A stretch of DNA of 64,000 nucleotides. It comes from Candidatus Doudnabacteria bacterium (GTDB lineage: Bacteria; Patescibacteriota; Doudnabacteria; UBA920; 2-01-FULL-46-14). Location of the stretch: the NCBI GenBank assembly GCA_041497195.1, contig JBGQGB010000001.1:213504-277503 (forward strand). The letters run 5' to 3'. The position numbers and the translations under genes are program-made. Position 1 is the stretch's first letter. The number at the start of each line of letters is the position of its first letter. This document shows, piece after piece, positions 13,439 through 42,933 of this stretch. The notes under the pieces are model-generated. The model did no database searches, was not told the origin of the DNA, and saw only the letters and a list, made by a program, of their open reading frames with translations.

Positions 13439-13441
13439 ATT

Positions 13442-15291: not shown

Positions 15292-15300
15292 ATTATATCA
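15292..15300 (-). promoter_or_regulatory. extended -10 element (TGATATAAT on minus strand) upstream of pilB
   Basis: About 95 nt upstream of the pilB ATG. It overlaps the last codons of the Wzy_C gene. Confidence 0.35.
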
Positions 15301-19193: not shown

Positions 19194-19199
19194 TAGAAT

Positions 19200-19562: not shown

Positions 19563-21589
19563 AATTGGTTTATTTGATTTAAAACGTAAATATCTACGGT
19601 TTGAAGCGAGCGTTGCAAATGATAAGAACTCTGAATGCCCCGGAGAAAATATTCGACCTGGTCATTGCGGTAAGCATCGCGGCCAACTAGCACTACAGGC
19701 AATCGGTTTTGCCGAACCTGACGAATGTATTTATCCATTTCGGACTGGAAATATATCGTGAAGGTATAATAAAAATCAAAATAATTCGCTTTGTCTGCAT
19801 ATATTAGAAATTTCGTGTCGTTCTTGGACATGATCGGGATGCGCTCGGTAGCGAAATTTTGGGAGACAAATTTGGCATCCTGATAAGTGCTCTGATCCTC
19901 CGGCCGCACTCCCAACAAATTCTGTCGCATTGTCGCATATTGTCTGACGGAGAATTCTACTGGCAGTTTAAAACAAAATAGCAATAAAGCATACACCAGT
20001 AATCCGAAAAACGCCCCGCTAATCAGCTTGCCGGAATCGCTCGGCCCCTCCCGGTCCTGAACATATTTAAAAGCGTAAAACACAATCAGGATGAACGGCA
20101 CCGTTACGACATAGAGTAGCTGCCACGTGGACTCTCCAACATAATAAATCAGCGAAGTCGCGCCAAAAGCTCCCAAAAAGAACAAGGGCATGTCAATCAT
20201 TGGTTCTTTTTTCCAGAGGCGGTAAACCGCGACTAGCAAAACAACTAGGTAAGAAAAATAAAAAAGCTCGTACAAACCAATAGGCGGCAATGGATACATT
20301 CCCGCGCCCTGAGTAAAGTACTTCGTTTCTTTGAGAAAAAGGTGCCAGTCTGGCCACCCGCCATAAATGCCATGATTAATGAGATTGATTGCGGCAAACA
20401 GACCCACCGCGTAAAGTCCGTAGAACAGGATGATTTTCAATACTCTCTTGAGATCCCAATTATGTGCCAACTCGCGATAGATGAGGGTCGCCACAGTCGC
20501 CACAGTCAGATATAATCCAGAATCAAAATTCCAAAATATGGCGACAGCAGATAGCGCCAAAGCCACGTGCATAAATTTTGGCTTTAGCGTTTTGGAATAT
20601 TGATAAATTGCCAATAAAGTCGGCAAATAGAGCCCCCACCGAAACGGGCTCATCCCGGGAAAAAACAAGACCGATCTTGAAAAACTGTTTTGAAAAAAAT
20701 AAAGGATAGAAACAATCGTCGCAGTCGCCAAGCTAGCGAGAGTGTAGGATTTTAGCCAAAGCCGGGCAAACAAAAAAATTCCGATAAAAAGCAAAAAATA
20801 ACACACAGTAATTATGAGGGCCAGCATCGGGTAAGTCATGGGAATAAGCTTAAACACCCCGGCCAGCAAGTATACGTCGAGCAATCCATATAGATGCGAA
20901 GACTCATATAACATGGCCTTACCGTGGTAGACGTCGTTCACTGCTCCAAGGTAATAATTGAAATGGTGGGTATCAAGCGGAAAACTTGGGTTAAAAATCA
21001 AGATTCCGAGGATAATAACCAAAACTGGCCAAAATCTTCGAAAAAATTTCTCCGTACGCTCGTGCGAATAAAATTTAGTATTGTATTTGCCCAGAAAATA
21101 AAAACCAGCCACAAACAAACCGCTCAAAAGCAAAACTGCGTGGGCGACTAGAATCCGCTTTGTCGTAAGCAACCACAAAATATGCCAGATCCCTTTTTTT
21201 TCCACAAGACTCAACAAAGCCCCCAGCTTAATGAGGCTCGAAAGTTTCTTTAGAACAACTGCTCCAGCGCCAAGCAAGGCAATCAAGGATAAACCGATTA
21301 GATGTTTTTTTCTGATTCGCGAAACGAGCGGCACCAATACTAAAGCTAAAGTTGGAACCACCAAATAACTCAGGACATAGAGCGGGGCCTCAAACGGCTC
21401 AGCTTGCATAAATGTCGGGCCAAAGCTGAGGAAAAGACCGACCGGCCTTCCATCAATGCCCATGTAATGATAAAGCCAATTCTGGAAATACCGGGCTGAC
21501 AAAAAATAAATGATTGTGCCGGTTCCGAGGGCCAGGAAATACTGTTTCTTGTTGCTCAGCACTGAATCCAAGCTCATTTCAATTCGCAA
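19559..21589 (-). CDS. large polytopic membrane protein (676 aa), GT-C-like candidate; paralog of 34681-36711
   Basis: At least 12 TM helices. Shares blocks with the second copy (PFExPLYxLSY, LYE..YG.L..YL.A, FWN.D.G.Y, YYVG.S.W). Confidence 0.45.
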   Translation of the reverse strand: MRIEMSLDSVLSNKKQYFLALGTGTIIYFLSARYFQNWLYHYMGIDGRPVGLFLSFGPTFMQAEPFEAPLYVLSYLVVPTLALVLVPLVSRIRKKHLIGLSLIALLGAGAVVLKKLSSLIKLGALLSLVEKKGIWHILWLLTTKRILVAHAVLLLSGLFVAGFYFLGKYNTKFYSHERTEKFFRRFWPVLVIILGILIFNPSFPLDTHHFNYYLGAVNDVYHGKAMLYESSHLYGLLDVYLLAGVFKLIPMTYPMLALIITVCYFLLFIGIFLFARLWLKSYTLASLATATIVSILYFFQNSFSRSVLFFPGMSPFRWGLYLPTLLAIYQYSKTLKPKFMHVALALSAVAIFWNFDSGLYLTVATVATLIYRELAHNWDLKRVLKIILFYGLYAVGLFAAINLINHGIYGGWPDWHLFLKETKYFTQGAGMYPLPPIGLYELFYFSYLVVLLVAVYRLWKKEPMIDMPLFFLGAFGATSLIYYVGESTWQLLYVVTVPFILIVFYAFKYVQDREGPSDSGKLISGAFFGLLVYALLLFCFKLPVEFSVRQYATMRQNLLGVRPEDQSTYQDAKFVSQNFATERIPIMSKNDTKFLIYADKANYFDFYYTFTIYFQSEMDKYIRQVRQNRLPVVLVGRDAYRNDQVEYFLRGIQSSYHLQRSLQTVDIYVLNQINQL

Positions 21590-21614
21590 ATATTAAGTAG
21601 GTAATCTAGGAATT

Positions 21615-22769
21615 TTATACGTCGATTGAAAAATCCTTTTGAAAGCGCAAACGGCCTTGCCGTCCGAATTCTCTGGCCAACTTCTTATCTCGAATCAGGG
21701 CGGCAATCGCGGCTGTAAACTCTTCTGTCTGCAAGGGATCCCGAATAAAACCTGTCTTCCCATCTTCCACCATTTCTCCGCTTCCCCCGAATATAGTGGC
21801 TACCACCGGACGCGCCGCCCGCATCGCTTCTAAAACCACGGTCGGCAGTGAATCAAAGCAAATTGAGGGAACAATCACCACACCGCAATCACGCATGGCC
21901 TCCTGATAACGAGTTTCATCCAACCAGCCGGTAAAGTTTAGTAAATTTTCCACGCCCAGACGGCGCGCCAAATCAAACATTTTTTCGGTTATCGGCCCCT
22001 GAGCTCCAACTATTCGCAACTTAACTTCAAGTTTATATTTTTCACGTAGTTTATGCAAATATTTTACCGCTTCCAATGCGCCTTTTGATGAAAAAAGTCT
22101 GCCCCCGAAAAAAATCGTGTCGTCAAAAATTTCGCTCGGCGCTTGCTTGAGGTCTGGGATTTTATTGTGCACAACTTTGTCAATCTCGATACCATTAGCG
22201 TTCAAAAAACTCGCCAGAGCTTGGCTTACGGCATAACGGACAGTGGCCAATCGCAAAAATCTGCGTATGAAAAAGTTGCGGAATGGATTGAAAGCAAACT
22301 TTGCTTGTTGCAGATGCCGCCACCAAGAATAGCGATACTGAAACCTGTAGCCATCGACCGAAGCACTATAAGGAATATTGCAGAATTTTACATACGGCGT
22401 AACGGAAACGACGTCGTGCAAAGTTATCACTGACTTGATGCCGCGACTCCTTAAAATGCGTAAACAATAATATGACCAGTTAGTGTGGATATTGTGAAGG
22501 TAGACTTCCTGCGGACGGAATCTGTTTAGCTCTTTCTGCAAAATTTTGATTGCGCGCGGGTGGTACAGTCCCAGATAGTTTCTCCACCGAGGATGATAAT
22601 CCAAATTATAAGTTCGGATCTGATACTCGGCCGGATTAAAACCAGCGGGGCTGTGGGCGGCAAGAACCAGGGCTTCATGCCCATGAGCCAAATGCTGGGC
22701 CTCTATCATAGCAATCGTGCCCGCTCCCCCGCCTGTGCCAAAATGGTCAGTCAAAATCAAAATTTTCAT
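21615..22769 (-). CDS. glycosyltransferase family 4
   Basis: Retaining GT-B layout, with a C-terminal ...FGGSGEMVEDGKTGF... (EX7E-like) motif. Confidence 0.7.
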   Translation of the reverse strand: MKILILTDHFGTGGGAGTIAMIEAQHLAHGHEALVLAAHSPAGFNPAEYQIRTYNLDYHPRWRNYLGLYHPRAIKILQKELNRFRPQEVYLHNIHTNWSYYCLRILRSRGIKSVITLHDVVSVTPYVKFCNIPYSASVDGYRFQYRYSWWRHLQQAKFAFNPFRNFFIRRFLRLATVRYAVSQALASFLNANGIEIDKVVHNKIPDLKQAPSEIFDDTIFFGGRLFSSKGALEAVKYLHKLREKYKLEVKLRIVGAQGPITEKMFDLARRLGVENLLNFTGWLDETRYQEAMRDCGVVIVPSICFDSLPTVVLEAMRAARPVVATIFGGSGEMVEDGKTGFIRDPLQTEEFTAAIAALIRDKKLAREFGRQGRLRFQKDFSIDV

Positions 22770-23452
22770 TTAGGTGATTTTTGAGAAGCTTCCTTGCGAC
22801 CTAAAAAATACATGCCGCCGGCAACCTTGGAAACATCCGGACGGCTTAGCAAAAAATAATCCAAATATTTCAGCGGAGCAACTAAAATTTTCATAGAATT
22901 TTTGAAGACAAATTTAAAAAAAGCACTTTTGGGCCAAAGCTGAGCGTACTCGACTAAGATCCAGGCGATCCCCGAACCTGGTCCATTGGTAATCCCTGTT
23001 TGCAGCTCTTTGAAATTCCGACACAGCAATCTCATTCCGCTGAGAGTCCAGCGCTGGTAATCTCCAGGCGCTTCATGATAGGGCTGTAAAAAGGGAAATT
23101 CAATATAAAGCTCCCCGCCAACTTTGAGCACGCGCCACGCTTCGTTAATTATTACTTGCGGCTCTTTCACATGTTCCAAAAGTCCACCATTGAATACGAC
23201 GTCTACGCTCTCGTCCAGAAAGGGCAAATTCTCCCCAAAAGCCTTGATAGTGTTTGGACCCCCTCGATAGGGATCAACATTTACAGCTCCCGGAACAGGA
23301 TCATAACCTCCGGATCCCACGTTGATAATTTTTTTCCCTTGTAAATTTTTATATCTTGCCAAAACTCTAGAATAATTATTGGTTGGATAGAAAATTCCGC
23401 CACGATAAAAAGACTTTCCTAACGTCTTTTTTATTTGCAAGAACATGTTCAC
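22766..23452 (-). CDS. class I SAM-dependent methyltransferase
   Basis: KIINVGSGG glycine-rich motif and an LKVGGELYIEF region. Shares an ATGA overlap with the upstream GT4. Confidence 0.6.
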   Translation of the reverse strand: MNMFLQIKKTLGKSFYRGGIFYPTNNYSRVLARYKNLQGKKIINVGSGGYDPVPGAVNVDPYRGGPNTIKAFGENLPFLDESVDVVFNGGLLEHVKEPQVIINEAWRVLKVGGELYIEFPFLQPYHEAPGDYQRWTLSGMRLLCRNFKELQTGITNGPGSGIAWILVEYAQLWPKSAFFKFVFKNSMKILVAPLKYLDYFLLSRPDVSKVAGGMYFLGRKEASQKSPK

Positions 23453-23459
23453 AAATTTA

Positions 23460-24218
23460 TCACTTTATCCCACAGGCTAAAATTTCAGTGAATAGATCAC
23501 GCTTAGTCGGCGGATCATATTCAATCATGAACGGATTCCATCCGAATAAAAAATAGAAAAAATTGACAAGCCAGGTCCCAAAATGCCTGTTACCAAAATT
23601 ACGAAATGTGTAACTATACAACCCATACCAAAAAATATGGTGAGTCAATTTGAGCTGAACCGCACTAAAATATTCTGCCATAATTTTTTCCAGTTCTTTC
23701 GGAAAAAACTCTCGGACATGATTCGAATCAGCAGGAATTTCTGAAAGCCGATGTGGAGTACTCAAAACCAATTTCCCTCCTGCACGCAAAACCCGCCTCG
23801 CTTCCATAAGCATTTTTTCCGGATACTGTAAATGCTCGATCACTTCGCAGCTAACCACCAAATCAAAGCTTTCTTCGGGAAAGGGCAATTCGTAAGCCGA
23901 GCCAAGGACAAAATCGTAACGAAGATTGTGTTTTCTATCTTGCGAAGCCAAATTTTCCTGTGCGAATTTAATTCCCAATTCTTCATTGTCGACGCCGGTA
24001 ATAATCGCCCCTTGTTCGGCCAAGAGAAAAGTCAGCGCCCCGTCCCCGCAACCCAGATCCAATATTTTCTTGCCCCGAATATCCCCGGCTATTTTGACGA
24101 TCCAATCATAACGAGCCTGCTGAAAAGCGTTAAATTTTCTAATGTCCCGACTGACCATCTCGCGCCAATGGATGCTGCCCCGGTCTTGGTACTTATTAAA
24201 TACTTTCTCTTCGGTCAT
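23460..24218 (-). CDS. class I SAM-dependent methyltransferase
   Basis: ILDLGCGDGALT and LRAGGKLVLSTP. The start is taken at MTEEK to limit overlap with the wzx gene. Confidence 0.65.
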   Translation of the reverse strand: MTEEKVFNKYQDRGSIHWREMVSRDIRKFNAFQQARYDWIVKIAGDIRGKKILDLGCGDGALTFLLAEQGAIITGVDNEELGIKFAQENLASQDRKHNLRYDFVLGSAYELPFPEESFDLVVSCEVIEHLQYPEKMLMEARRVLRAGGKLVLSTPHRLSEIPADSNHVREFFPKELEKIMAEYFSAVQLKLTHHIFWYGLYSYTFRNFGNRHFGTWLVNFFYFLFGWNPFMIEYDPPTKRDLFTEILACGIK

Positions 24219-25539
24219 TTTTTTGCGCAAAGAAAAATAAATATAAATAAGACAAAAAATTCGGCAGAAACGCAAAAATCAGAGTCGTCGCTATCAATCC
24301 TTTAATATGATGAAACCGAATTAGGTAATAAGAAGTGGGGATGAGGCACGTTAAATTGATGAACTGAATCGCAACCAAGACTCGCATTTTGTTCAGAGTT
24401 CGAAATAGCGGCGCAATGCCCACGTCCGCGGCAATGATTGCTGGATACAAAGCCAAACCGTAAATCAAGCGGATACTCGGTTTGTATTGCGGAAAAATCA
24501 GTTCAATGACCGGACTGGCTAACAAGACCATTAGGAGGATGATCGCTAGCATAACGGCTAAGGATACCAAACTGACTTGCCAAAACCGACGAAACAACTT
24601 CTGCGGACCCGCCGTTTGCGTAAAAGAAAATTGCACGTCCAAAAGTCTGGTTACTGGATCCAAAAGCAAAAGCGGCAAGGATACATAGGCCAAAGCAATC
24701 TTGTAAAATCCAATCCCTGAATCAGTTGCCATAAAATACCCCGTAAACAACAGCGGGACCGTACCTACAAATTTGATCAAATTTTTTCCCACCGCAATCT
24801 CCATGGAAAATCGGAAAAATTGCTTGAATTTTTTCCAGGAAAGTCGCTGGCGGAAAAATTCGCCCATCTTCGGGACCAATGGCTCGACTTTTACCAGCTG
24901 CTGATAAACTATAATGCCCACGATGCTAATGATTATGGTGGCAACAAGCTGGCCGATAACAATTCCGAAAACTTTGAGCCCCAGCAAAACCAAGCCCAAT
25001 GGGACGAGCGCCATCAAAATTTTGTTGCTGGATTCCAAAATCGCCAGTGATTTCATTTTCCGCCAGACCTGAAGAACAATCGCAGCCAAAGGGTAAAAAA
25101 AGGTCAGGGCCGTGATTGCCACGACAATTGCCGCCAACTCCCCTAAATACCGATCATGATAAAATTTGTCTCCTAAATACGGGGCCAACAGAAAACCCGC
25201 AAGACCGGTAGTGAAGAGACCGATGATTGAAACTAACCCAAAAAAATTCAAAACCTGGTTAGTTTCTGCAAAATCGTTCTGACTTCGAGCCCTGGCCAAA
25301 AGGTTGATAGCTGCCTGACCAATCCCAAAGTCTTGAAAGATATTGATCGTTCCACCCAAGGCAAATACTAAACCGTAAAAACCATACTGTTCCGGCCCCA
25401 GGATCCGGGCAAAAATTAAAGACGCCAATACCGCGACAGCCCGGGCGAGGATTGAAGAAGTCTGCAAAACCGCGACGTCTTTTGTAAACGGATGGGAGAC
25501 CCACTTCAAAATTTTTTCTTTCAGACTAGGCAGATTCAT
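24196..25539 (-). CDS. wzx: oligosaccharide/polysaccharide flippase (Wzx, MOP superfamily)
   Basis: 447 aa, about 12 TM helices, polysacc_synt-type topology. Confidence 0.65.
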   Translation of the reverse strand: MNLPSLKEKILKWVSHPFTKDVAVLQTSSILARAVAVLASLIFARILGPEQYGFYGLVFALGGTINIFQDFGIGQAAINLLARARSQNDFAETNQVLNFFGLVSIIGLFTTGLAGFLLAPYLGDKFYHDRYLGELAAIVVAITALTFFYPLAAIVLQVWRKMKSLAILESSNKILMALVPLGLVLLGLKVFGIVIGQLVATIIISIVGIIVYQQLVKVEPLVPKMGEFFRQRLSWKKFKQFFRFSMEIAVGKNLIKFVGTVPLLFTGYFMATDSGIGFYKIALAYVSLPLLLLDPVTRLLDVQFSFTQTAGPQKLFRRFWQVSLVSLAVMLAIILLMVLLASPVIELIFPQYKPSIRLIYGLALYPAIIAADVGIAPLFRTLNKMRVLVAIQFINLTCLIPTSYYLIRFHHIKGLIATTLIFAFLPNFLSYLYLFFFAQKNDRRESI

Positions 25540-27920
25540 AGAGTATATTGAAAAACTATCCTGTGTTTCCCTGGCGGTATTGGTATGGCTTGATTGAGAT
25601 AATTGGCCCGGTAAACGGTCACGGAAATACCGTCAATGGTTGCGCGCCACCCAGGATAAAAATTCTGACCAAACAACATAATCCGCGACGTCTGGGCGCT
25701 CACCATAAATTCAAAATCACTGTTCGAACTTTTAAGCTCCGTGATATTCCCTTCCCCTGCTTGGTTCGTCGGGCACGGCTGATCGCATTCAACTAGCACT
25801 GCATCTCTTGTAGCGGCTTCCAAATTCTTCTGCCAAGACTGAGCTTCAGATAAAAGATTGTCAAAAACCACGTTATTAGCCAAATAATACCGCGGCTTGA
25901 CTTGTAAATTTTGATAGAGATACAGAGGAATCTCATACTTTGTGGCACGCCAGGTAAACACCTCCTTCAAAGTCGGATCAGTCAGCGGATAGGCACTGAC
26001 GACATATTTGACGTTATATTCCGACAGCAGGGGCAATCTCTCAAGAAACAACTTTATTTTATCGTCCAGAGAAAGCTTTTCGTCCACGAGAATGCCAGAA
26101 GTTTCCAGGGAGCGGTCGCTGCCTAAATAGGCTAGGAGCCGACTGTGGCGGCGATCCATGATGTTATCATAATAATCCAACGAATCCACCCCGTAATAAG
26201 GACCAAGATTGGGAACCAGCAGATTTTTTAATAATTCTACGTTCTGAACCGAATCATAACCGTACGGGGTATCAAGCTTGTCAAAAACGGTAAAACCGGA
26301 AAACAAAGTCAGTACTCGAAAATTGCTCTGGTCTCTTTTCAAATATTCTACCAGCGGAGGTGGAGTATTGAGCTGCTGTGCGCTGACAAAATTGAAACTG
26401 GCAAAATCAATTAAAACCAAATTCAAAAAAGTCAAACTAACAACGTAAAAAATAAAGCGGCGCTCTCCTAGACTCCGCCTAAAATAAAACAGTGTCGAGC
26501 CGAGTGCCAGCGAAATAACTGCTGCCGAAATCGGTATGTTCGGAAAAGTCGTCCCTGTTTTGATCTTCCCGACTAACTGCTCCACTACTTGATAATAGTG
26601 CTCTGTTGGTAAAGTCAGGCTGCCGCTCATGGCTCGATTTTGGATATAATGTGCGGCTTTGCTACTAGCTAGAAAACTAATTGTAGGAAAAATTATGGAC
26701 CAGGAGGCAAATATTCCGGCGATTGATAAAGTAATTACCATTAAAAACTTTGAAAGTTTCAAACCTAATGCGGGCTGTCGTAATAGAGTCTCAAACCCGT
26801 ATGCAGAAACGACGGTGGCAGCAAAAATTCCCACGTAAACTAGTCTTGATAAACCTCGAAAGGATTGAAACAAAGGTAAATGATGTATCACCCACATGAG
26901 GGGTGAATATTTTACCGACGCTGCTATCGATAAAACAGCAAGCCAGGCAAAAAATTTGTAAAATGCGCCTTTCGCTCCAAAAAAAGAAAAAATGACTAGG
27001 AGCGACGGCACGGCGCCCAGATAAAACAAGCCGGGCTGGGTGATGCCGACGGGCAGAGATAGATTGGGAAAAATCAAAGACAGTAAATCGCCTGGCAAAA
27101 CAGCGCCCAATTGTGCGTCTGCAAAACTCACCCCGCCTGCCCGCGAAGACAGCTGACTAGCTAGCAACGACGCGTGAAACTGCGGCCAAAATAAAACGGC
27201 CGCGATAGCCAAAGTAAACCCGGCAAATACAAGGGTTTGAAATTTAAAGAGGACGACGGTTCCCAGGTGTTTATTGTGGAAGTCCAAAAACAGCGCCCAA
27301 ACCCCTGCTGCAAAAAGGGCCTGCAGAGACCATTGAAAATGAGCGGCCAGCATGACTGTCCCGATGAGTCCTCCGGCAAATATAGCCATCAAGATAGATT
27401 TTTTGTAAGACTGGCTCGTGGAAAAATATAAAAAGAAAAAAAACAAAGCAGGCAACAATATGTCTCCCGAAGTCACCGTCATATTTGCGGACCAAACAAA
27501 GTACGCTGCCGTCCAGGGTAAAACGAGTCCGGCAAAAACGGCCACGACTTTTCTCAACCCAAGCCGCGATACCAATTCGAAAGTAAAAATCGAGATCAGC
27601 CAGACATTCACAAAAGTGACCCAAGAAAAAACGGCTAGCACTGAAAAATTTTTATAAAGCAACTGGTTGAGCCATGACAGCAACCCCCCCATCAACCCGG
27701 CGACGGGAACAAAACCAGTGAGAACATGCGGATTCCAAAAAATCGACTTTCCCGCCAGCAATGATTCACGCAAAAACTGTAAACTTGTATATTGCTGCAA
27801 AATGACGTCGCCGTCGGCAAAAATTTGTTTGGCAAACAAAATCGGAAAAAAAATAACAAGCCCGGGCAGGGCGAGTATTGAATAAATGGTTAATTTGCGA
27901 AATATAGTCCTAAAATTCAT
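25536..27920 (-). CDS. YfhO-like GT-C membrane glycosyltransferase candidate (794 aa)
   Basis: N-terminal FAKQIFADGDVILQQYTSLQFLRESLLAGKSIFWNPHVLTGFP is typical of the YfhO family. Many TM helices and a C-terminal soluble domain. Confidence 0.5.
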   Translation of the reverse strand: MNFRTIFRKLTIYSILALPGLVIFFPILFAKQIFADGDVILQQYTSLQFLRESLLAGKSIFWNPHVLTGFVPVAGLMGGLLSWLNQLLYKNFSVLAVFSWVTFVNVWLISIFTFELVSRLGLRKVVAVFAGLVLPWTAAYFVWSANMTVTSGDILLPALFFFFLYFSTSQSYKKSILMAIFAGGLIGTVMLAAHFQWSLQALFAAGVWALFLDFHNKHLGTVVLFKFQTLVFAGFTLAIAAVLFWPQFHASLLASQLSSRAGGVSFADAQLGAVLPGDLLSLIFPNLSLPVGITQPGLFYLGAVPSLLVIFSFFGAKGAFYKFFAWLAVLSIAASVKYSPLMWVIHHLPLFQSFRGLSRLVYVGIFAATVVSAYGFETLLRQPALGLKLSKFLMVITLSIAGIFASWSIIFPTISFLASSKAAHYIQNRAMSGSLTLPTEHYYQVVEQLVGKIKTGTTFPNIPISAAVISLALGSTLFYFRRSLGERRFIFYVVSLTFLNLVLIDFASFNFVSAQQLNTPPPLVEYLKRDQSNFRVLTLFSGFTVFDKLDTPYGYDSVQNVELLKNLLVPNLGPYYGVDSLDYYDNIMDRRHSRLLAYLGSDRSLETSGILVDEKLSLDDKIKLFLERLPLLSEYNVKYVVSAYPLTDPTLKEVFTWRATKYEIPLYLYQNLQVKPRYYLANNVVFDNLLSEAQSWQKNLEAATRDAVLVECDQPCPTNQAGEGNITELKSSNSDFEFMVSAQTSRIMLFGQNFYPGWRATIDGISVTVYRANYLNQAIPIPPGKHRIVFQYTL

Positions 27921-27922
27921 AC

Positions 27923-28666
27923 TCAGCGAACTTTGCGTCCGATAATTATGACCGATGACCCGATCGGAAAACTTAAAAATCTCAAGAGCCGAGATTCAAT
28001 TTTAGAAAAAAACACGAACATTTTGTTGAGTACCTCCGGTAATTCCACGTAGCTGAATTGGGGATGAAATCGTTTTTCTTGAAAATGCCCGACCGCTCGA
28101 TAAAAAAATACGAGAGGAAATACGAAAAAGAAAATGTAACTTGATTTGACGGTCACAAACCCAGCTTCCGCCAATTTGGCTTCCAAGTCTTTTCTTCGAT
28201 AACGCCTCACATGATGCACCGCGTCGTCGAGCTCACTCCACAAAAACTTGAACGCCGGCACGCTTAGCAAAACATATCCACTCAGTTTCAGAATTCGATT
28301 AATCTCCTGCAGCGCCTTCTTGTCGTCTTCAAAATGCTCCAAGACATCAAACATGGTTACCAGATCGGCTGATTTGTCAGGCAAGCCAGTTTCGTAAAAT
28401 CCCTTCATCAGAGCGACAGTGTCCAAACCCTTGCTGCGACAAAAATCCAAGGCGCGGGGTTCTATATCTAAACCGAGGACTTTTCCGTGTTTTCGCAACA
28501 TTACAAAATTTCCCCCCGTCCCGCAACCAATATCTACGATTTTGCTACTCTGCGCCGGCTGATGAAAAAAACGCTCCAACAGCTTATCAAAAATATAACG
28601 ACGCCCCAGATACCACCAATACCGATTTTCAAGCTCATCAGTCTTATCGTAGGCCTCTTGCCGCAT
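27923..28666 (-). CDS. class I SAM-dependent methyltransferase
   Basis: IVDIGCGTGGN. The start is moved to the Met that overlaps the upstream stop by 1 nt (TAATG). Confidence 0.65.
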   Translation of the reverse strand: MRQEAYDKTDELENRYWWYLGRRYIFDKLLERFFHQPAQSSKIVDIGCGTGGNFVMLRKHGKVLGLDIEPRALDFCRSKGLDTVALMKGFYETGLPDKSADLVTMFDVLEHFEDDKKALQEINRILKLSGYVLLSVPAFKFLWSELDDAVHHVRRYRRKDLEAKLAEAGFVTVKSSYIFFFVFPLVFFYRAVGHFQEKRFHPQFSYVELPEVLNKMFVFFSKIESRLLRFLSFPIGSSVIIIGRKVR

Positions 28667-29919
28667 TACAAAATCCTTTCTGACCCGATGGGGACGATGA
28701 ATTTGCCTCCGTTCTGGCGAAAGTTTTGTTCTTTTTCCAGCACAACGTTTTTGTAATTCCAAGCCAACAGAAAAGCATAATCCGTGTGATCTTTCCGAAA
28801 TTCGGACACATGGACTACGGGAACGTGCGTTCCCGGGGTATAGAGACCGATTTTCGAAGGAAGCTCCTCAGTAGAATAATCAAGAATATCTATCCCGATA
28901 CCGAAATAATTCAAGAGGGTGTTCCCTTTTGCCGGCGCGCCATAACCAACTATTTTTTTCCCCTGTTTTTTAAGGTCCCGTAACAGACTCACAACTTCAG
29001 CTTTTAATTCTGCAATACGGCGAGCTAGGTCTGTGTATGAGTCCAACTGGTTCAGTTTTAATTTCAGCTCTTTCGCGACTAGATTTTGCACCGAGGGCAT
29101 TATTGGTCTGGCTCCGTGTTTGCAAGCAAAAACTCGAATGGAATTGCCCTGTATTGGGTGAATCTCCACGTCAAAAATGTCCATATCATGTTGAGCAAAA
29201 AGTCGCAATAAGGGACGGGCTGCCAAATACGACAAATGTTCGTGATAAATCGTATCGAACGAAAGGTTTTCAAACATGTCCAAAAGATACGGCGCCTCGA
29301 ACACAAACACCCCGTCATCCGTCAACAATTCCCTGACGCCCTTCGCCAGATCGTGATGATTGTTGATATGCGCGACCACATTGTTGCCAACAATCACTTT
29401 TGCCCGACCCTGCTTGGTGGCGATGTGTTTGGCAATTTTTTCGGAAAAAAAATCAGGCAAGGTCGGAATCCCCCGCTTGTTGGCGCTTTCGGCGATATTC
29501 TTCGCTGGATCAATCCCCAGAATCCGGCATCCTGATTCTTTCACCACCGCCAGGAAATGACCGTCATTACTGCCAATTTCAACGGCCAAGTCATCTTTTG
29601 ACCCAATAAATTTCTGTACTATCGACTCCGCATAATCGCGAAAATGTTTCGAGGCTGGCATTCCTGAAGAAAAGTATAAATAATCACGAAACATGATCTT
29701 TGGATCGACTACGTCCCGGAGTTGCACTAGTCCGCAATCGTTGCAAAATACCACCCTCAGTGGATAAACAGGCTCTGGGGTACTGAGCTGGTCGGCGCGC
29801 AAAAAGGAATTTGCCAGAGGCTGCTCTCCCAGATCTAAAAATTGGACTAAAGAAGCATTGCCGCAAATGCGACAGCTAGATATTTGCCTAACTCCAGCGG
29901 CCATTCGATTGTCTTTCAT
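28666..29919 (-). CDS. NDP-hexose C-methyltransferase (TylCIII/EvaC family: zinc-ribbon plus class I MTase plus C-terminal C-MT domain)
   Basis: N-terminal CRICGN...FCNDCGLVQL zinc ribbon, EIGSNDG SAM motif, 417 aa. Confidence 0.7.
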   Translation of the reverse strand: MKDNRMAAGVRQISSCRICGNASLVQFLDLGEQPLANSFLRADQLSTPEPVYPLRVVFCNDCGLVQLRDVVDPKIMFRDYLYFSSGMPASKHFRDYAESIVQKFIGSKDDLAVEIGSNDGHFLAVVKESGCRILGIDPAKNIAESANKRGIPTLPDFFSEKIAKHIATKQGRAKVIVGNNVVAHINNHHDLAKGVRELLTDDGVFVFEAPYLLDMFENLSFDTIYHEHLSYLAARPLLRLFAQHDMDIFDVEIHPIQGNSIRVFACKHGARPIMPSVQNLVAKELKLKLNQLDSYTDLARRIAELKAEVVSLLRDLKKQGKKIVGYGAPAKGNTLLNYFGIGIDILDYSTEELPSKIGLYTPGTHVPVVHVSEFRKDHTDYAFLLAWNYKNVVLEKEQNFRQNGGKFIVPIGSERIL

Positions 29920-30952
29920 AGTGATCCAAAAAACCAGGTTTCAGGCGGATATTCTTCCACCAAGACTCATTCGCAACATACCAATTTACAACCTCCTCGA
30001 TGGCATTTTGAAAACTATGAATGCGCGACCAACCCAACTCTTTCTGAAGCTTGGAGGAATCGGGAGCATAGCGATTATCAGCTCCCGGCCGATCATTCAC
30101 GTGATGCCTATGCTCTTCCGGATTTTTTTGCAAATGTTTGGCCAGCGCAGCAATAACGGCCAAATTGGATAACTCTTCGCCGGCGACATTATAAACTGAA
30201 TGATTGGAAGCTTGCTGAATGATCAGATCAATGGCTCGACAAAAATCCTGCACATGCAACCAGCTGCGGATATGGCGGCCATCGCCGTGAATGGGAACTT
30301 TTTTGCCTTCGAGCATGTTCGTGACGGCTAGTGGAATCAGCTTTTCCGGATACTGATACGGGCCGTAATTATTGGAGCCGCGAACGATGATGGCGGGCAG
30401 ATTATGAGTCCGCATATAAGCTTGAACCATCAGGTCAGCCCCGGCTTTCGAAGCAGAATAGGGATTGGAAGGCCTAAGCGGCGCTTCCTCAGACGCGTAG
30501 CCTTCGCTCATCGAGCCGTAAACCTCGTCGGTGGAAACATGGATAAACCGCGGAACGCCGTATTTTCTCGCCGCCTCGATCAAGCAACGGGTACCGTCGA
30601 TATTGGTGCGAATAAAATGGATCACGTTGAAGATCGCCCGGTCGACGTGTGACTCGGCGGCAAAATGCACGATCAGATCAAATTTATGTTCGGAAAAAAT
30701 TTGGTCCAAAAGAGACTCGTTGCAGATATCGCCTTGAATAAATTCATACCTGCCGTCTTTCGGCTCCAGCTGAGCCTCCCGAAATTCGATGTCCTTGAGA
30801 TTGTCGGGATTTCCGGCATAGGTCAACAAATCGAGGTTGGTGATTCGCGCATGCGGATAAGTATGATAGAAATAACGAATAAAATTCGAGCCGATAAAGC
30901 CCGAACCACCAGTAATCAAAACTTTATGAAACCGCTGACTGGCACCGTTCAT
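29888..30952 (-). CDS. rfbB: dTDP-glucose 4,6-dehydratase
   Basis: VLITGGSGFIGSNF, YSASKAGAD (YxxxK), extended SDR, 354 aa. Confidence 0.8.
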   Translation of the reverse strand: MNGASQRFHKVLITGGSGFIGSNFIRYFYHTYPHARITNLDLLTYAGNPDNLKDIEFREAQLEPKDGRYEFIQGDICNESLLDQIFSEHKFDLIVHFAAESHVDRAIFNVIHFIRTNIDGTRCLIEAARKYGVPRFIHVSTDEVYGSMSEGYASEEAPLRPSNPYSASKAGADLMVQAYMRTHNLPAIIVRGSNNYGPYQYPEKLIPLAVTNMLEGKKVPIHGDGRHIRSWLHVQDFCRAIDLIIQQASNHSVYNVAGEELSNLAVIAALAKHLQKNPEEHRHHVNDRPGADNRYAPDSSKLQKELGWSRIHSFQNAIEEVVNWYVANESWWKNIRLKPGFLDHYERQSNGRWS

Positions 30953-31683
30953 TTCTGAGAATACAATCCCTTCTTATTTCTGATTAAAATTTTGAACATC
31001 CCGATGATGGAACGCCATGATTCCCAAAGCGGCCTGACTTGCGAACCGCGATAATCCGTCCAATTGACAGGTAGTTCTTGAAACTTCCAGCCGCGTTTCT
31101 CCCCCGCATAGACTATTTCCGCCTCGGCCAAAAAACTATTGTCGAACTGGTGGTTAAAAATATCCAAAGCCGCCTCACGCCGAAACATTTTGAAACCATT
31201 TACCCGATCGATCATCCGCCAGCCGAACATAATATGAGCCAAAAGCACGAAACCCCAGCCGAGCGCGATGCGGTGAAGGGGCTGGGGCGAGAGCACGCGC
31301 GCCCCTTTGATGTTGCGGCTGCCAATCAATACTTGTACTTCGGGGTGCGATGCGAAATATTTCAAAAAATCAATTATCGCCTCTTCCCCCACACTGCCAT
31401 CCGCGTCGGTTTCCAAAACAAACTTGCCGTTGCTGGCAAAAACCGCATCGCGCACGACGGCACCGCGACCGCGGTTTTTCGGGAAAGACAGAAGCCGCAG
31501 CTTGGGATACATTTCCGCATATTGTTTCACTGCGGCAACCGTCCCATCCGTACTGCCGTCATCCGCCACAATGACCTCATAATCACCGTGGTAGTGCACG
31601 TAAAAATAATCGAAAAGGCGCTTCAGGGTCCCAGGCAAGCGCTCTTGCTCGTTGTAAGCCGGAATGATTACTGACAGTTCCAC
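30949..31683 (-). CDS. GT2 polyprenol-phosphate glycosyltransferase (DPM1/GtrB-like, soluble form)
   Basis: LSVIIPAYNE, ADDGSTDGT, ETDADGS (DxD). Confidence 0.75.
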   Translation of the reverse strand: MELSVIIPAYNEQERLPGTLKRLFDYFYVHYHGDYEVIVADDGSTDGTVAAVKQYAEMYPKLRLLSFPKNRGRGAVVRDAVFASNGKFVLETDADGSVGEEAIIDFLKYFASHPEVQVLIGSRNIKGARVLSPQPLHRIALGWGFVLLAHIMFGWRMIDRVNGFKMFRREAALDIFNHQFDNSFLAEAEIVYAGEKRGWKFQELPVNWTDYRGSQVRPLWESWRSIIGMFKILIRNKKGLYSQK

Positions 31684-31752
31684 GTGATTAAATACACAGT
31701 TAAAAAGTCCACTTCAGTATAACAAAAAAATGCCCTTATTTCAAGCATTTTC

Positions 31753-32640
31753 TTAGCCGAGGCGTCTGTAAATTTTCTCCAAATTTCTGGTCACCCGGAG
31801 GCCATGTGCGATCCCGGTAATCGGTGTCTCGCCAGTTTGCACAGATCTGATAAAATGTTCAAGCTCGCTACGCAGGGGTTCGGTATCCAGCACTGTCGGC
31901 AGCGCAACAACGCTGCCTTTTACCGCCATTTGCAACTGGGTTTGACCCTCGATTTCGGTAAATGTCGCGACTCCGTTCTCGGCTGCAAATGTCATGCGGC
32001 GGGTCTTTTGCGGCGCAACGCTCGAAACCGCAAACGCCAACTGCACTCTCCCCTCAAACTCGACCATGGTCTGCGCGAAATCATCAAACTTCTCCTGCGT
32101 GATTTTCAAAATACTTCCCTGGGCCGTCGCCACCTCTGGACCGTCGCAAAGCCAATCAATGATGGATAGAGCATGCGGAGCTGCGTCCCAAAACGCGCCC
32201 ACGTCTTCCCGCACCGGGCCGGGGTAGAAATGTTCATATGAAATAAACCGAACTCGACCGAGCCGGCCACTGGTTATTTCATTTTTCAGCAGCTGAAGAT
32301 GCGCGTTGTAAACATACTGGTGTCCGACCATCATGACGACAGGACTCTTGTCGAGTAAATTTTTGATCACTTCCGCCTGCGCCACACTCAGAACCATGGG
32401 TTTTTCCACCAGCACATGCTTGCCGGCTTCGATGCCTCGACGCAAATAATCAAAATGCGTCGCGGCCGGAGTGGCAATCACAACGCAGTCAATTTCTCGG
32501 TCCCGTAAAACCGCATCTGGATCGCCGGACGACCGACTGACTACGGTTTTGAGCACCGCGCCCGGAAGACTCTGCAATATCCTCACGTAATGCTGCCCGA
32601 AGCGACCAGTACCGATCACAGCAAATCTCAGTGCAGCCAT
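31753..32640 (-). CDS. Gfo/Idh/MocA-family NAD(P)-dependent sugar oxidoreductase
   Basis: RFAVIGTGRFG Rossmann motif and an EKP motif (VLVEKP). The start is taken at the internal Met to avoid overlap with the cupin gene. Confidence 0.7.
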   Translation of the reverse strand: MAALRFAVIGTGRFGQHYVRILQSLPGAVLKTVVSRSSGDPDAVLRDREIDCVVIATPAATHFDYLRRGIEAGKHVLVEKPMVLSVAQAEVIKNLLDKSPVVMMVGHQYVYNAHLQLLKNEITSGRLGRVRFISYEHFYPGPVREDVGAFWDAAPHALSIIDWLCDGPEVATAQGSILKITQEKFDDFAQTMVEFEGRVQLAFAVSSVAPQKTRRMTFAAENGVATFTEIEGQTQLQMAVKGSVVALPTVLDTEPLRSELEHFIRSVQTGETPITGIAHGLRVTRNLEKIYRRLG

Positions 32641-32645
32641 GTTCT

Positions 32646-33023
32646 TTAGATTAATTTGACCCGAATCGTATCGTCTTCGTAATGTGCCTGATTGCGCGGC
32701 TGGGTCGAGAAAGTCCAAAATACGGTGTCTTCAAGAAATTTGACAGCGTGGATCGTCAGCGGCGGCGTGCAAACCATGTCACCGGCATTCAAAATTTCTT
32801 TTTCAATTTCTCCTCCAGACGCCGGTTTTTCGTACCATTCGGCTTTACCGGAGACGATATAGCACCAGTGCTGATCTTTTTTGTGATAATGATTGGAGCG
32901 GACTGAGCCAGTTTTGGATGTGATATAAAGGATGCTGTGAATCGGCTCCTCCGTATCCAAAACCCGCATGATGACTCCCCGCTCCTCGATGATTTCCGGC
33001 TTGATGTTTCTGGTAATATTCAT
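32646..33023 (-). CDS. cupin-fold protein (WxcM/FdtA-like sugar ketoisomerase candidate)
   Basis: 125 aa, HYHKKDQHW ... cupin motifs. Lies next to an oxidoreductase. Confidence 0.4.
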   Translation of the reverse strand: MNITRNIKPEIIEERGVIMRVLDTEEPIHSILYITSKTGSVRSNHYHKKDQHWCYIVSGKAEWYEKPASGGEIEKEILNAGDMVCTPPLTIHAVKFLEDTVFWTFSTQPRNQAHYEDDTIRVKLI

Positions 33024-33159
33024 GGATTGTGCAAAAATTTTAAACGCGAATGCTCATTCAGCATAACAAAAAAAAAGTCTTCCCGCAACTATTTATTACG
33101 GTTGACACTCCTGGTTTTTTCAAATACACTGAGATATTGTAAAACGAGAAGGAGAAACT

Positions 33160-33810
33160 ATGAACCCTCATGGGTGGAACTCACTAAACTTGTTTCGCGC
33201 TCAAACTTTGGCTCTGAGCGACGGGCCGCCAAAACCTGTGGATGCAATTTTTCTCCACACTCGAGCCAAGGGCGACGATGACCAACTTTTTGAAATTGCC
33301 GCTAAAGCGCTCCGAACTGGACTCGCTCGCTACGTGATTACTAACGGTTCTGACGGGCAGTCCCACCGGCGTGGGCCAGGCAGTGGTTGGGCCGGAAAAG
33401 ACGCATGGGTGAAAGCCCTGCGGAAGCTTGGTATTCGCGAAACAGCAATTTTGCTCTGCCAGCCCGCTCTCGACACGCGGGAAGAAAACACTCAATTTTT
33501 AGAAACGGCCGTAAGTCACGGATTCAAACGAGTCGCAATTCTGGCACAACCTCACCAGGTGCTCCGCGCCATGCTCGGACTGTTGAAAGAAATGGATTTG
33601 CAGAAGCATTACTTGCAAGTTTACGTGATGACGCCTCAGTCCTGCCCGTGGTGGCGCAAGGTCTACGGCTCCCAAGGGCTTCATTTGAAACCCCGGTTTG
33701 AGCATATAGAGGACGAAGCTTCTCGCATCGAAAAATATGCTACAAAAGGAGATCTAGCTACTCCCAGTGAATACTTCGCGTACCTGAAACACCGCGACCA
33801 GGTGAAATAA
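33160..33810 (+). CDS. DUF218 (YdcF/ElyC/SanA-like) domain protein, GC-rich
   Basis: Core pattern ...YVITNGSDG...ALDTREENTQFL...VAILAQPHQVLRA resembles the DUF218 fold. Confidence 0.45.
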   Translation: MNPHGWNSLNLFRAQTLALSDGPPKPVDAIFLHTRAKGDDDQLFEIAAKALRTGLARYVITNGSDGQSHRRGPGSGWAGKDAWVKALRKLGIRETAILLCQPALDTREENTQFLETAVSHGFKRVAILAQPHQVLRAMLGLLKEMDLQKHYLQVYVMTPQSCPWWRKVYGSQGLHLKPRFEHIEDEASRIEKYATKGDLATPSEYFAYLKHRDQVK

Positions 33811-34680: not shown

Positions 34681-36711
34681 TCAAAAACCTTTTAAACGAT
34701 AAATCTTCAGGGTGTTCAGGGTTTTTTCCAACTCGTAGTGTTGTTTTGCAAAATTCTCAAGATCAGCTATCCGGACGTCATAATTTTTGTAAAGAAAAAC
34801 GTGTTCGGGCTGCGAAGCAGCTAATTGTTCCGTCAGCGCTTTGACCTGGCTATGAAAGACGATTTGATAGTCATCATACACGCGGTATAACTTCTGGCCG
34901 TTTTGGGTACTATAGAAAAAATTTATCTTCCCCGCCATCAGCAGCAACTTTCCGTCGTCAGGATGGAATAGCGGTATGGCTTCTTCTGAGTAATGCTCCT
35001 TGATATATCGGGCATCTTCGTAAATCTGCTGGTCCTTTGGCGCGATTGCGGTCAAGCTTATTTTGGAATAATCGCGATAAGCAAACACTACCGGCAATTT
35101 GGCCAAGCTTAGTGTGGCAAAAAAAGCGAGAAACGCGCCCAGAGCTGCCGACATGAACCGTTTCCAAGTTTTTTGATCGGAAAACGCAAAATAGCGGTAA
35201 AACGCGGACCACAACAAAAGCAGCATGGACAAAGACGTTGCATTCAAATAACTCCAGGCAGAATTACCGACATAATAAGTCAAAGCAAAAATGCCGTAAA
35301 CGGTGAAAAAAACGGTAAGTAAATGTTCGGGGCGCCGGCGCCACAACCCCGTCGCTATCCAAACGGCAAAGCCCGAATAGACCAGCACGAAGATTTCAAA
35401 CAGGCCGACTTTCGGCATCGGGAGCTTGCCAAACCCCTGCTCAAATCCGGTCAAAACCAACCAGACGAATCTCCATTTCGGCCACTGATGATAGAGGAGC
35501 CGATTGAGGCCGCCAATCACCCCAAAAACTATGGCGATATAGCCCGCCTGTTCCAAACCGGCAATCAGTATTTTTCGAAGTTTCGGCCAAAACCGGGCGA
35601 CGCGAATGTGAACGTCATAGCCCAAGGTGGCAAACACTGCGATATTGACATAAATTCCCGTATCAACGTTCCAAAATAAAGCCAAAGCCGAGAAAAAAAG
35701 AAGCAATTGTCTCTTTCCTGTACTGGGAAATTTAACGTACCGGGAGATCAGCCAAGCTAATACTATGTAAAACCCCTGCCGGTATACCGTCTGGCCGGGA
35801 AAATCATACGGCGTGAGATAAGGATCAGTAAGGAGGAAAAAATTCACGACAACCGCGAGCCATGTCCCCACCAGAGCGAACAGATCTGAATTCATCCAGT
35901 TTTTCAAGGTCCGGTAAACCAAAACGAAAAAGGTAAAATACAATACCATCAGGATTACCGAGAAAGCCTGGTACGATATCGGCAGCAGAAATTTCATGAT
36001 TGCGGCCACCAAATAAGTGTTCAAGATCCCATAGATACCGACGGTTTCATACAGCAGGGGTTGGCCCCGCAGCATCAGATCGACGGGAGAGACTACCATG
36101 TTCGTATATCCTTCGGCAGAAGGAAAATTGGGATGAAAAACGATCAGGGCTAGAAAGACAAAAAAATAAGGGACAATTTTTTTCAGGCGCGGAGACTGGT
36201 TGAGGGTCTGTAACCAGAGGGTTTTACTTTGCCGCCAAAACACGACCGAAAATGCAAAAATTGCGGCCAAAAAGGATAGCCGGACGATGTAAATCCTTTT
36301 GGTGAACAAAAGCCAAGCCAAGTGCCAGAGGCTTCTTCTCTGAAAATATCCCGTCGCAAAAGCCCAGCTTGGAAGATGGACGCGAAAAACCAGCCTCGAC
36401 GCATAAACAATACCCGCCAGGACCGCAGTTCCGGCAACATACTGGAAAACTTTCGAATTGCGCAGAGAATAAAAAACCAAGGCCAGAAGCGGGATGACCG
36501 CATAGCTGAGAAAATAAAGGGGAATTTCGAACGGTTCGGGCAAGATGGGAAATCCCGGATAGGCGTCAACCATTTCAAAATTCCAAAACGTGAAGTGGTT
36601 CTGAAACACCCGGGACGCAATAAAATAGATTAGTACGCTTGGTACCAGCCACAGCGCGTAACTGGCGAAATCGAATGTTTTGAATGATTCGAAAAATTTT
36701 ATGGACTTCAT
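34681..36711 (-). CDS. large polytopic membrane protein (676 aa), GT-C-like candidate; paralog of 19559-21589
   Basis: Same length and shared blocks with the first copy. At least 12 TM helices. Confidence 0.45.
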   Translation of the reverse strand: MKSIKFFESFKTFDFASYALWLVPSVLIYFIASRVFQNHFTFWNFEMVDAYPGFPILPEPFEIPLYFLSYAVIPLLALVFYSLRNSKVFQYVAGTAVLAGIVYASRLVFRVHLPSWAFATGYFQRRSLWHLAWLLFTKRIYIVRLSFLAAIFAFSVVFWRQSKTLWLQTLNQSPRLKKIVPYFFVFLALIVFHPNFPSAEGYTNMVVSPVDLMLRGQPLLYETVGIYGILNTYLVAAIMKFLLPISYQAFSVILMVLYFTFFVLVYRTLKNWMNSDLFALVGTWLAVVVNFFLLTDPYLTPYDFPGQTVYRQGFYIVLAWLISRYVKFPSTGKRQLLLFFSALALFWNVDTGIYVNIAVFATLGYDVHIRVARFWPKLRKILIAGLEQAGYIAIVFGVIGGLNRLLYHQWPKWRFVWLVLTGFEQGFGKLPMPKVGLFEIFVLVYSGFAVWIATGLWRRRPEHLLTVFFTVYGIFALTYYVGNSAWSYLNATSLSMLLLLWSAFYRYFAFSDQKTWKRFMSAALGAFLAFFATLSLAKLPVVFAYRDYSKISLTAIAPKDQQIYEDARYIKEHYSEEAIPLFHPDDGKLLLMAGKINFFYSTQNGQKLYRVYDDYQIVFHSQVKALTEQLAASQPEHVFLYKNYDVRIADLENFAKQHYELEKTLNTLKIYRLKGF

Positions 36712-38558: not shown

Positions 38559-38604
38559 TAAAAAAAGGATATTAAGGCTTTCTTTTCTTATTATAGCAAG
38601 ATAT

Positions 38605-38662
38605 CAAACTCTGACAAAAAAAATACACCGGCTCTCGGAGAACAAAATTCGTCTCCAAAAGC
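38605..38662 (-). terminator. rho-independent terminator after gene 38694-39299
   Basis: Stem CACCGGCT/AGCCGGTG with an inner hairpin, followed on the minus strand by a T run. Confidence 0.45.
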
Positions 38663-38693
38663 CGGTGAACAAACCGGTTTTGCTGCAAGGGCA

Positions 38694-39299: not shown

Positions 39300-39471
39300 A
39301 TCTCTCCTCCTCCTTGAGTGCTTGCCCTAGAAAAACGACAATCCGAACAACCTGAGAAAGTGGATAATACCAATTTTTTCCTCTACTGTCAAGAGTATAA
39401 GGTGGGGTTGTTTCAAAACAAAAAACAGAATCTCTCGACCCTGTTTTTACCGATGAGAATTGGCGCTATAC

Positions 39472-39942: not shown

Positions 39943-39945
39943 AAT

Positions 39946-41278: not shown

Positions 41279-41282
41279 AAAA

Positions 41283-42905: not shown

Positions 42906-42933
42906 AAAAAAATAAATTATCGGATTTACTGAT

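Follow-up and report, generated by a model that had tools for sequence, protein, structure and literature searches.

A predicted sugar C-methyltransferase paired with an RmlB-type dehydratase in a surface-glycan operon of a Doudnabacteria genome

The closest described relatives of the gene pair reported here belong to actinomycete antibiotic pathways. MtmC, TylCIII and EryBIII are three-domain C-methyltransferases (C-MTs) that are fed by a deoxythymidine diphosphate (dTDP)-glucose 4,6-dehydratase, act on 2,6-dideoxy substrates and are accompanied by an adjacent two-domain 2,3-dehydratase. TcaB9, KijD1 and EvaC are C3-methyltransferases of 3-amino-2,3,6-trideoxy sugars. The present pair lies in a 64,000-nucleotide (nt) stretch of a Candidatus Doudnabacteria bacterium (assembly GCA_041497195.1, contig JBGQGB010000001.1, positions 213,504 to 277,503), hereafter the window, and comprises a 417-amino-acid (aa) putative C-MT and a 354-aa protein predicted to be the dTDP-glucose 4,6-dehydratase RmlB. 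The two genes are contained in a surface-glycan operon of this ultrasmall bacterium of the Patescibacteria, or candidate phyla radiation (CPR). The window C-MT has the three-domain architecture and the apparent 4,6-dehydratase supply of MtmC, TylCIII and EryBIII, and has in common with MtmC the zinc, S-adenosylmethionine (SAM) and catalytic residues and His221, but it has no adjacent 2,3-dehydratase, falls in a different clade and sits among CPR surface-glycan genes. With TcaB9, KijD1 and EvaC it shares the fold, the family, 36-37% identity and the Tyr/Glu/His residues; those enzymes, however, act on 3-amino sugars and carry an Asp where the window enzyme and MtmC have a His. No aminotransferase other than an RfbH-like one (37338-38558), which belonged to another operon, was encoded nearby in the window.

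Outside antibiotic metabolism, an NDP (nucleoside diphosphate)-hexose 4,6-dehydratase and the TylCIII homologue CBU_0691 have been proposed, largely in silico, to make the virenose of Coxiella burnetii (PMC3539893). Like the system in the window, that pathway serves a surface glycan, would methylate an NDP-4-keto-6-deoxyhexose directly at C3 and has no obvious classical 4-ketoreductase; unlike it, the pathway belongs to a proteobacterium, its sugar is probably linked to guanosine diphosphate, and no cassette of cupin, GFO-family oxidoreductase, family 2 glycosyltransferase (GT2) and GT-C glycosyltransferase has been described (PMC3539893). The use of a 4,6-dehydratase with a TylCIII-type C-MT for a surface glycan has a published in silico precedent in that pathway. 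The novelty here is modest and consists of the occurrence in CPR bacteria, the finishing by cupin and GFO, and the link between GT2 and GT-C. A literature search for C-methyl sugars in CPR bacteria returned nothing.

All sequence criteria that were applied place the product of 28666..29919 in the TylCIII/MtmC/TcaB9 C-methyltransferase family. A first-pass annotation of this DNA had described a zinc ribbon, a methyltransferase domain and a C-methyltransferase C-terminal domain, and all three were recovered above the Pfam gathering cut-offs: Methyltransf_13 (PF08421, zinc-binding) at residues 16-77 (2.7e-27), Methyltransf_23 at residues 112-246 (2.4e-15, with further matches to Methyltransf_12 and Methyltransf_11) and Methyltransf_14 (PF08484) at residues 255-411 (6.2e-52, profile positions 1-159 of 160). 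The last of these is the C-terminal domain whose absence the same annotation had taken as the mark of an O- or N-methyltransferase. In a search against all PDB sequences the protein could be aligned from one end to the other with 4RV9 (entered there as D-mycarose 3-C-methyltransferase and presumably MtmC; 2.4e-101, 42.8% identity) and over its full length with TcaB9 (1.8e-79, 36.2% identity) and 5T64 (deposited as 'Sugar 3-C-methyl transferase', which we take to be KijD1; 3.7e-79, 36.9% identity).

Conserved residues were read from an alignment of 86 sequences. The four zinc cysteines were kept (Cys11, Cys14, Cys54 and Cys57 in the 412-aa numbering) and matched cysteines in all three solved enzymes. 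SAM motif I (VEIGSNDG) and the downstream acidic Asp132 were conserved. His179, Tyr220, Glu222 and His223 aligned with His181, Tyr222, Glu224 and His225 of TcaB9, which the Holden laboratory is reported to have described as the catalytic set; Tyr220, Glu222 and His223 were identical in all 86 sequences. Position 221 was a His in the window C-MT, in MtmC and in 84 of 86 relatives, and an Asp in the two 3-amino-sugar enzymes, a weak hint that the substrate may bear a hydroxyl and not an amino group at C3.

An identical C-MT protein was present in the NCBI assembly GCA_041485525.1, and the closest named relatives were all Patescibacteria (Doudnabacteria, Azambacteria, Niyogibacteria and Sungbacteria). 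The C-MT matched none of the NCBIfam families, among which no specific model exists, and public records therefore label it as a generic class-I methyltransferase.

The product of 29888..30952 is RmlB by a curated cut-off: it scored 409.6 bits against TIGR01181, the dTDP-glucose 4,6-dehydratase equivalog, where the cut-off is 365.1. It also matched the solved RmlB 6BI4 (3.3e-97 over residues 10-336). For both proteins of the pair, scores of this size are far from what chance would give. The motifs STDEVYG, with the dehydratase TDE pair, and YSASK, the YxxxK motif of short-chain dehydrogenases/reductases (SDRs), were both present, as they were in the RmlB of another Doudnabacteria genome (L003; comparison loci carry L numbers throughout).

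Both open reading frames (ORFs) were present on the minus strand, at 28666..29919 (417 aa) and 29888..30952 (354 aa). The overlap with a dTDP-glucose 4,6-dehydratase homologue that the first-pass annotation had reported was borne out, at 32 nt for the longest C-MT ORF and 17 nt when translation starts at Met6 (29904); the public gene call uses this second start, giving 412 aa. The rmlB stop codon fell inside the 5' end of the C-MT gene, and the two genes are translationally coupled. At the junction of the GT2 gene and rmlB the overlap was 4 nt (ATGA), and the C-MT stop shared one base with the start of the next methyltransferase gene (TAATG), so that the reading frames of GT2, RmlB, C-MT and methyltransferase overlapped or abutted. 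A gap of 69 nt separated the GFO oxidoreductase and GT2 genes. A consensus scan of 19000-33400 placed one promoter-like site in this gap; promoter and terminator counts over the scanned region equalled those of shuffled sequence, with no excess of either.

In the order of the minus strand, the genes of the cassette were as follows.

32646..33023, minus strand: metal-type cupin, 125 aa, candidate NDP-4-keto sugar epimerase/isomerase (Cupin_2 and CapF-C-like matches)
31753..32640, minus strand: GFO/IDH/MocA oxidoreductase, 295 aa as called, candidate pathway ketoreductase (GFO_IDH_MocA 2.9e-24)
30949..31683, minus strand: small soluble GT2, 244 aa, candidate polyprenyl-phosphate sugar synthase (Glycos_transf_2 5.6e-30)
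29888..30952, minus strand: predicted dTDP-glucose 4,6-dehydratase RmlB (TIGR01181, PDB 6BI4, catalytic motifs)
28666..29919, minus strand: predicted NDP-4-ketohexose C-methyltransferase, TylCIII/MtmC/TcaB9 family (Pfam domains, PDB alignments, conserved residues)
27923..28666, minus strand: class-I SAM methyltransferase, 247 aa as called, candidate sugar O-methyltransferase (Methyltransf_11/_23)
25536..27920, minus strand: YfhO-like polytopic membrane protein, 794 aa, candidate GT-C glycosyltransferase (weak YfhO match, transmembrane segments)
24196..25539, minus strand: Wzx-type flippase (Polysacc_synt 2.9e-23; kept in L003 and L005)
22766..24275, minus strand: two class-I methyltransferases of about 252 and 226 aa (Methyltransf_11 and related; kept in L003 and L005)
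21615-22769, minus strand: GT4 glycosyltransferase (order kept in L003 and L005)
19559-21589, minus strand: polytopic membrane protein, 676 aa, with no Pfam match (order kept in L003 and L005)

Genes for Wzx, GT4, Bac_transf and Wzy_C were found in the same block as the C-MT, and because of their presence the block is taken to build a surface glycan. The cassette block was kept in a Logan contig, with a C-MT 76% identical to that of the window, and in a Doudnabacteria genome (65-66%).

The C-MT family itself was large: a search of 1.84 billion representatives (E <= 1e-30) recovered 4,292 clusters at the 50% identity level, and members were found in at least 600 species when one genome per species was scanned. 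Its genes turn up very often in polysaccharide loci, and they do so across bacterial phyla. The earlier statement that C-methylated deoxysugars are rare in surface glycans may hold chemically, for glycans that have been characterised; for the genes it does not hold. Fusion proteins were common in the family: L006 encoded a 763-aa protein (1736-4027) joining a C-MT to an SDR, 60% identical to the window enzyme, and many members were 540-955 aa long. A CPR-like genome (L089) carried two C-MT paralogues 5 kb apart (9001-10248 and 15158-16405), each with a GFO-family oxidoreductase nearby.

Gene context was compared by tblastn with the window proteins across 85 loci, within 10 kb of each C-MT. An RfbF-like homologue of the window nucleotidyltransferase at 50665-51492 was found in 59/85 loci and an RfbG-like homologue of the window SDR at 49688-50662 in 44/85, in most such loci directly upstream of the C-MT. 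NCBIfam models placed the two window proteins as glucose-1-phosphate cytidylyltransferase-like and cytidine diphosphate (CDP)-glucose 4,6-dehydratase-like, respectively, both just under cut-off. RmlB at above 60% identity was found only in CPR loci. In a third group of loci the C-MT stood beside SDRs with SSSEIYGDP and CYDESKR motifs, which we take to be typical of uridine diphosphate (UDP)-glucuronate decarboxylase and ArnA-type 4-oxidases; the NCBIfam matches of these SDRs, to ArnA and UDP-xylose synthase (UXS), agreed with that reading. The C-MT-adjacent SDRs in L006, L009, L010, L013, L018, L019 and L061 all lacked the TDE pair. Partner SDRs in other lineages had been considered as 4,6-dehydratases, and their motifs ruled this out in favour of UXS/ArnA-like signatures. 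In L009, L010, L013 and L018, which are cupin-C-MT cassettes from other phyla, a UXS/ArnA-type SDR lay directly downstream of the C-MT, and such cassettes hint that a UDP-4-keto-pentose may be C-methylated. The common denominator of these contexts is an enzyme, of whatever type, that makes an NDP-4-keto sugar, followed by a C-MT, and this fits the requirement of the enolate mechanism in the C-MT family.

A neighbour-joining tree sorted the C-MTs by gene context into three groups. The first held the natural-product enzymes of actinomycetes, two of them from Streptomyces loci in which the C-MT has a 2,3-dehydratase as its neighbour; the second was the CPR clade of the window, beside a cupin-associated clade; the third was a large RfbF-associated clade. 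The RfbF/RfbG-C-MT cassettes common in other phyla recall vinelose, reportedly a CDP-linked 6-deoxy-3-C-methyl-2-O-methyl-L-talose of Azotobacter vinelandii, and thus a 3-C-methylated and O-methylated sugar outside antibiotic metabolism. We know of no genes assigned to vinelose. Its structure matches the logic of a C-MT with an epimerase, a reductase and an O-methyltransferase; the window C-MT, by contrast, is paired with RmlB rather than with genes for a CDP-linked sugar.

Taken together, RmlB and the C-MT probably form the core of a dTDP-3-C-methyl-6-deoxyhexose pathway that feeds a surface glycan. RmlB would oxidise and dehydrate dTDP-glucose to dTDP-4-keto-6-deoxy-D-glucose. The 4-keto group would acidify the C3 proton, so that an enolate could form in the C-MT and the SAM methyl group be transferred to C3, and the predicted product would be a dTDP-3-C-methyl-4-keto-6-deoxyhexose. 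For the steps after methylation, the 125-aa cupin may epimerise or isomerise the keto-sugar and the GFO oxidoreductase may reduce the remaining keto group, an assignment that is not secure. The adjacent class-I methyltransferase could then O-methylate the sugar, the GT2 would transfer it, probably to polyprenyl phosphate, and the YfhO-like GT-C protein or a Wzx-dependent route might place it on a cell-surface polymer or protein.

Single-domain PDB matches of the cupin profile were to QdtA (3.6e-6), FdtA (4.3e-4), the cupin domain of Cap5F (5e-4) and RmlC-like proteins (2e-3), all of which act on NDP-4-keto-6-deoxy sugars. The HxH...H set typical of metal-binding cupins was kept in the cupin family. 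Seven loci outside the cassette of the window, from several unrelated lineages (L009, L010, L013, L018, L019, L034 and L061), had a cupin homologue immediately upstream of the C-MT, and the third enzyme beside such cupin-C-MT pairs was in some loci a GFO oxidoreductase and in others a DegT aminotransferase. The window, L003 and L089 each had the pair of cupin and GFO; the CPR sister loci L090 and L091 had an FdtA/RmlC-type cupin and RmlD-like SDRs instead. The GFO oxidoreductase may be a 3-ketoreductase of the KijD10 or TylCII type, but its match to PDB 3RBV ('Sugar 3-ketoreductase', 2e-8) was weak and limited to the N-terminal Rossmann part. The 247-aa methyltransferase was kept in L003 and L005, and similar methyltransferases flanked the C-MT in L089-L091.

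The GT2 matched the NCBIfam models PpgS, Dol-P-hexose transferase and AglJ over nearly their full length, all below cut-off, and the dolichol-phosphate mannose synthase 5MLZ in the PDB (1.5e-11). It had no transmembrane segment. In a Doudnabacteria genome a GT2 homologue and RmlB were fused in one 608-codon ORF (L003/L004, 8206-10032) that was identical in two independent assemblies, with a second, paralogous GT2 just upstream; this fusion speaks for a role of the GT2 in the pathway of the dehydratase. The 794-aa protein had at least 11 transmembrane segments, a DGD motif just after the first of them and a soluble C-terminus of about 285 aa. Its position was kept in L003 and L005, a search of PDB sequences returned no match to it, and weak PMT_2 or AftD-like GT-C matches were found near the cassette in sister CPR loci (L089-L091). 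A DPM1/PpgS-like GT2 near a large polytopic protein with a weak YfhO match resembles the three-component systems built from a GtrB/CsbB-type GT2, a flippase and a YfhO/GT-C protein. It differs from them in that the window GT2 has no transmembrane helices and the YfhO match is below cut-off. The donors of the known three-component systems are of the UDP-Glc or UDP-GlcNAc type, and a dTDP-linked branched deoxysugar is not known among them.

The polytopic 676-aa protein at 19559-21589 had a counterpart of the same length at 34681-36711. The two were 28% identical to each other, neither matched Pfam, and the pair was kept beside the cassette in Doudnabacteria; they are possibly uncharacterised glycan-handling proteins. 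Type IV pilus genes were found in 7189-17748 (PilM/N/O-like proteins, a PilB ATPase, PilC and a pilin-like protein), together with a Wzy_C/O-antigen-ligase-like protein with TPR repeats. Only the Bac_transf gene and a small EamA-like gene separated these genes from the glycan operon, and pilins may possibly be a target of glycosylation.

On the full reading, the CPR surface would carry a C-methyl-branched, O-methylated 6-deoxyhexose, made with a metal-type cupin and a GFO ketoreductase in place of the RmlC/RmlD-type enzymes and carried by the GT2 on polyprenyl phosphate to the YfhO-like GT-C protein. This whole is offered tentatively and is rather doubtful as a single package. A more radical version would have the C-MTs of the cupin-associated clade act on a 3-keto sugar and methylate C2 or C4.

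Several observations weigh against these proposals. Assignment of methylation to C3 rests on homology at 36-43% identity to solved enzymes. RmlA was not found among the window ORFs or in the next 10 kb to the right, and for this reason we infer the dTDP carrier from the RmlB model score; the sole nucleotidyltransferase in the window was RfbF-like. No canonical SDR 4-ketoreductase was found in the cassette, the best matches of the GFO oxidoreductase were NDP-sugar 3-dehydrogenase-like, and the known NDP-sugar enzymes of the GFO family act at C3, not at C4. The best single-domain cupin match was a 3,4-ketoisomerase, a reaction that cannot follow C3-methylation. The YfhO match of the 794-aa protein scored 24.3 bits, below the Pfam cut-off of 28.5.

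Because the GFO oxidoreductase resembles 3-dehydrogenases, and because a 3,4-ketoisomerase could not act after C3-methylation, an alternative with different regiochemistry was kept. Here the cupin would be a 3,4-ketoisomerase, the C-MT would methylate C2 or C4 of a 3-keto sugar, and a GFO or DegT enzyme would follow; methylation at C5, as by NovU, is a variant. The ranking of QdtA and FdtA as the best single-domain cupin matches favours it, as do the 3-dehydrogenase-like relatives of the GFO protein, the alternation of GFO and DegT beside cupin-C-MT pairs, as in the Fdt/Qdt pathways, and the separation of the window C-MT clade from all characterised enzymes. Yet the residues aligned with the TcaB9 catalytic set were all unchanged, the cupin matches were remote, with the epimerases (Cap5F and RmlC-like) scoring nearly as well, and the metal-type HxH...H site of the cupin is one that FdtA and QdtA are not known to use. 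To our knowledge, no C-MT of the TylCIII/MtmC/TcaB9 family acts on a 3-keto sugar. This alternative is considered unlikely.

Slightly less likely still is a mycarose-type route, in which the gene at 5483-6121 and the GFO oxidoreductase, as a 3-ketoreductase, would make a dTDP-4-keto-2,6-dideoxyhexose and the C-MT would convert it to a 2,6-dideoxy-3-C-methyl sugar. The first-pass annotation had pointed to this gene as a single-domain 2,3-dehydratase-like gene of the same window. The domain call stood: the 212-aa product had one Hexose_dehydrat domain (2.4e-29), and it is the only Hexose_dehydrat gene in the window. The link to the C-MT did not. The gene lies 23 kb from the C-MT, between tRNA-Arg and tRNA-Lys and among housekeeping genes, and no homologue was found within 10 kb of the C-MT in any of the CPR loci compared. 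Characterised NDP-hexose 2,3-dehydratases have two Hexose_dehydrat domains, and no two-domain enzyme linked to the C-MT was found in the window. The family was small, with 51 clusters of about 200-215 aa, and the one named organism in it belonged to the Patescibacteria. Three other genomes (L086-L088) carried a homologue, near dTDP-sugar genes in L086 and L087, a point in favour of the route, and among housekeeping genes in the third, but in none of the three was a C-MT nearby. Also in favour are the best solved relative, 4RV9, deposited as a D-mycarose enzyme and presumably acting on a 2,6-dideoxy substrate, and the existence of GFO-family 3-ketoreductases such as 3RBV; the match to 3RBV, however, covers the Rossmann part alone. 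The C-MTs with an adjacent 2,3-dehydratase (L015 and L049, grouping with MtmC) fell in a clade separate from that of the window. The 2,6-dideoxy route is thus unsupported.

It is quite improbable that the substrate of the C-MT is a CDP- (or other NDP-) 4-keto-6-deoxyhexose supplied by the RfbF/RfbG-like pair at 49688-51492, with the adjacent RmlB serving another product. The frequency of RfbF- and RfbG-like genes beside C-MTs in the 85 loci would fit such a supply, as would the presence of the pair in a window where RmlA was not found. However, the RmlB and C-MT reading frames overlap, their pairing was kept in CPR loci with no RfbF/RfbG pair nearby, and the window C-MT clade was separate from the RfbF-associated clade. 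The RfbF/RfbG pair of the window, moreover, has a 285-aa methyltransferase of its own behind it, and a link of the pair to the RfbH and thiamine pyrophosphate (TPP) enzyme genes described below is more plausible. That the 417-aa protein is an O- or N-methyltransferase merely resembling C-methyltransferases is very improbable given its full three-domain architecture, its match at 2e-101 to a solved C-MT and its conserved catalytic residues.

Other sugar pathways were encoded to the right of the cassette that is proposed to make the dTDP-3-C-methyl-6-deoxyhexose. What is probably another branched-sugar pathway, of yersiniose type, occupied 37338-43902 and 48654-51492. It comprised an RfbF-like cytidylyltransferase, an RfbG-like dehydratase, an SDR, a GtrB/PgfS-like GT2 with GtrA, an RfbH/E1-like pyridoxal phosphate enzyme (354 bits against a cut-off of 423) and a 540-aa acetolactate-synthase-like TPP enzyme that scored below all acetolactate synthase cut-offs. 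In the Patescibacteria locus L011, an RfbF/RfbG/RfbH/TPP set was located 6-10 kb from the C-MT. Nonulosonic-acid-type genes were found at 44042-48516 (a PseB-like dehydratase, a PseC-like aminotransferase, DUF218, NeuB and a formyltransferase-like protein). Adenosine diphosphate (ADP)-heptose genes were found at 53954-58264: a GT9 heptosyltransferase, HldD (TIGR02197, 383.6 bits, above cut-off) and a PfkB kinase fused to a cupin, with a CTP_transf_like/HAD gene that was present among them in public gene calls only.

The C-MT call itself adds little: members of the family number in the thousands, and most of them carry the wrong label of a generic methyltransferase. Overall, the window invests unusually heavily in rare sugars, with a C-methyl branch, a probable yersiniose-type branch, nonulosonic acid and heptose genes. 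CPR bacteria, episymbionts that for the most part have escaped cultivation, probably attach to their hosts through surface glycans. If the proposed pathway is correct, it would open the branched sugars of CPR envelopes to biochemical study for the first time and possibly add a new type of ketoreductase for NDP-4-keto sugars.

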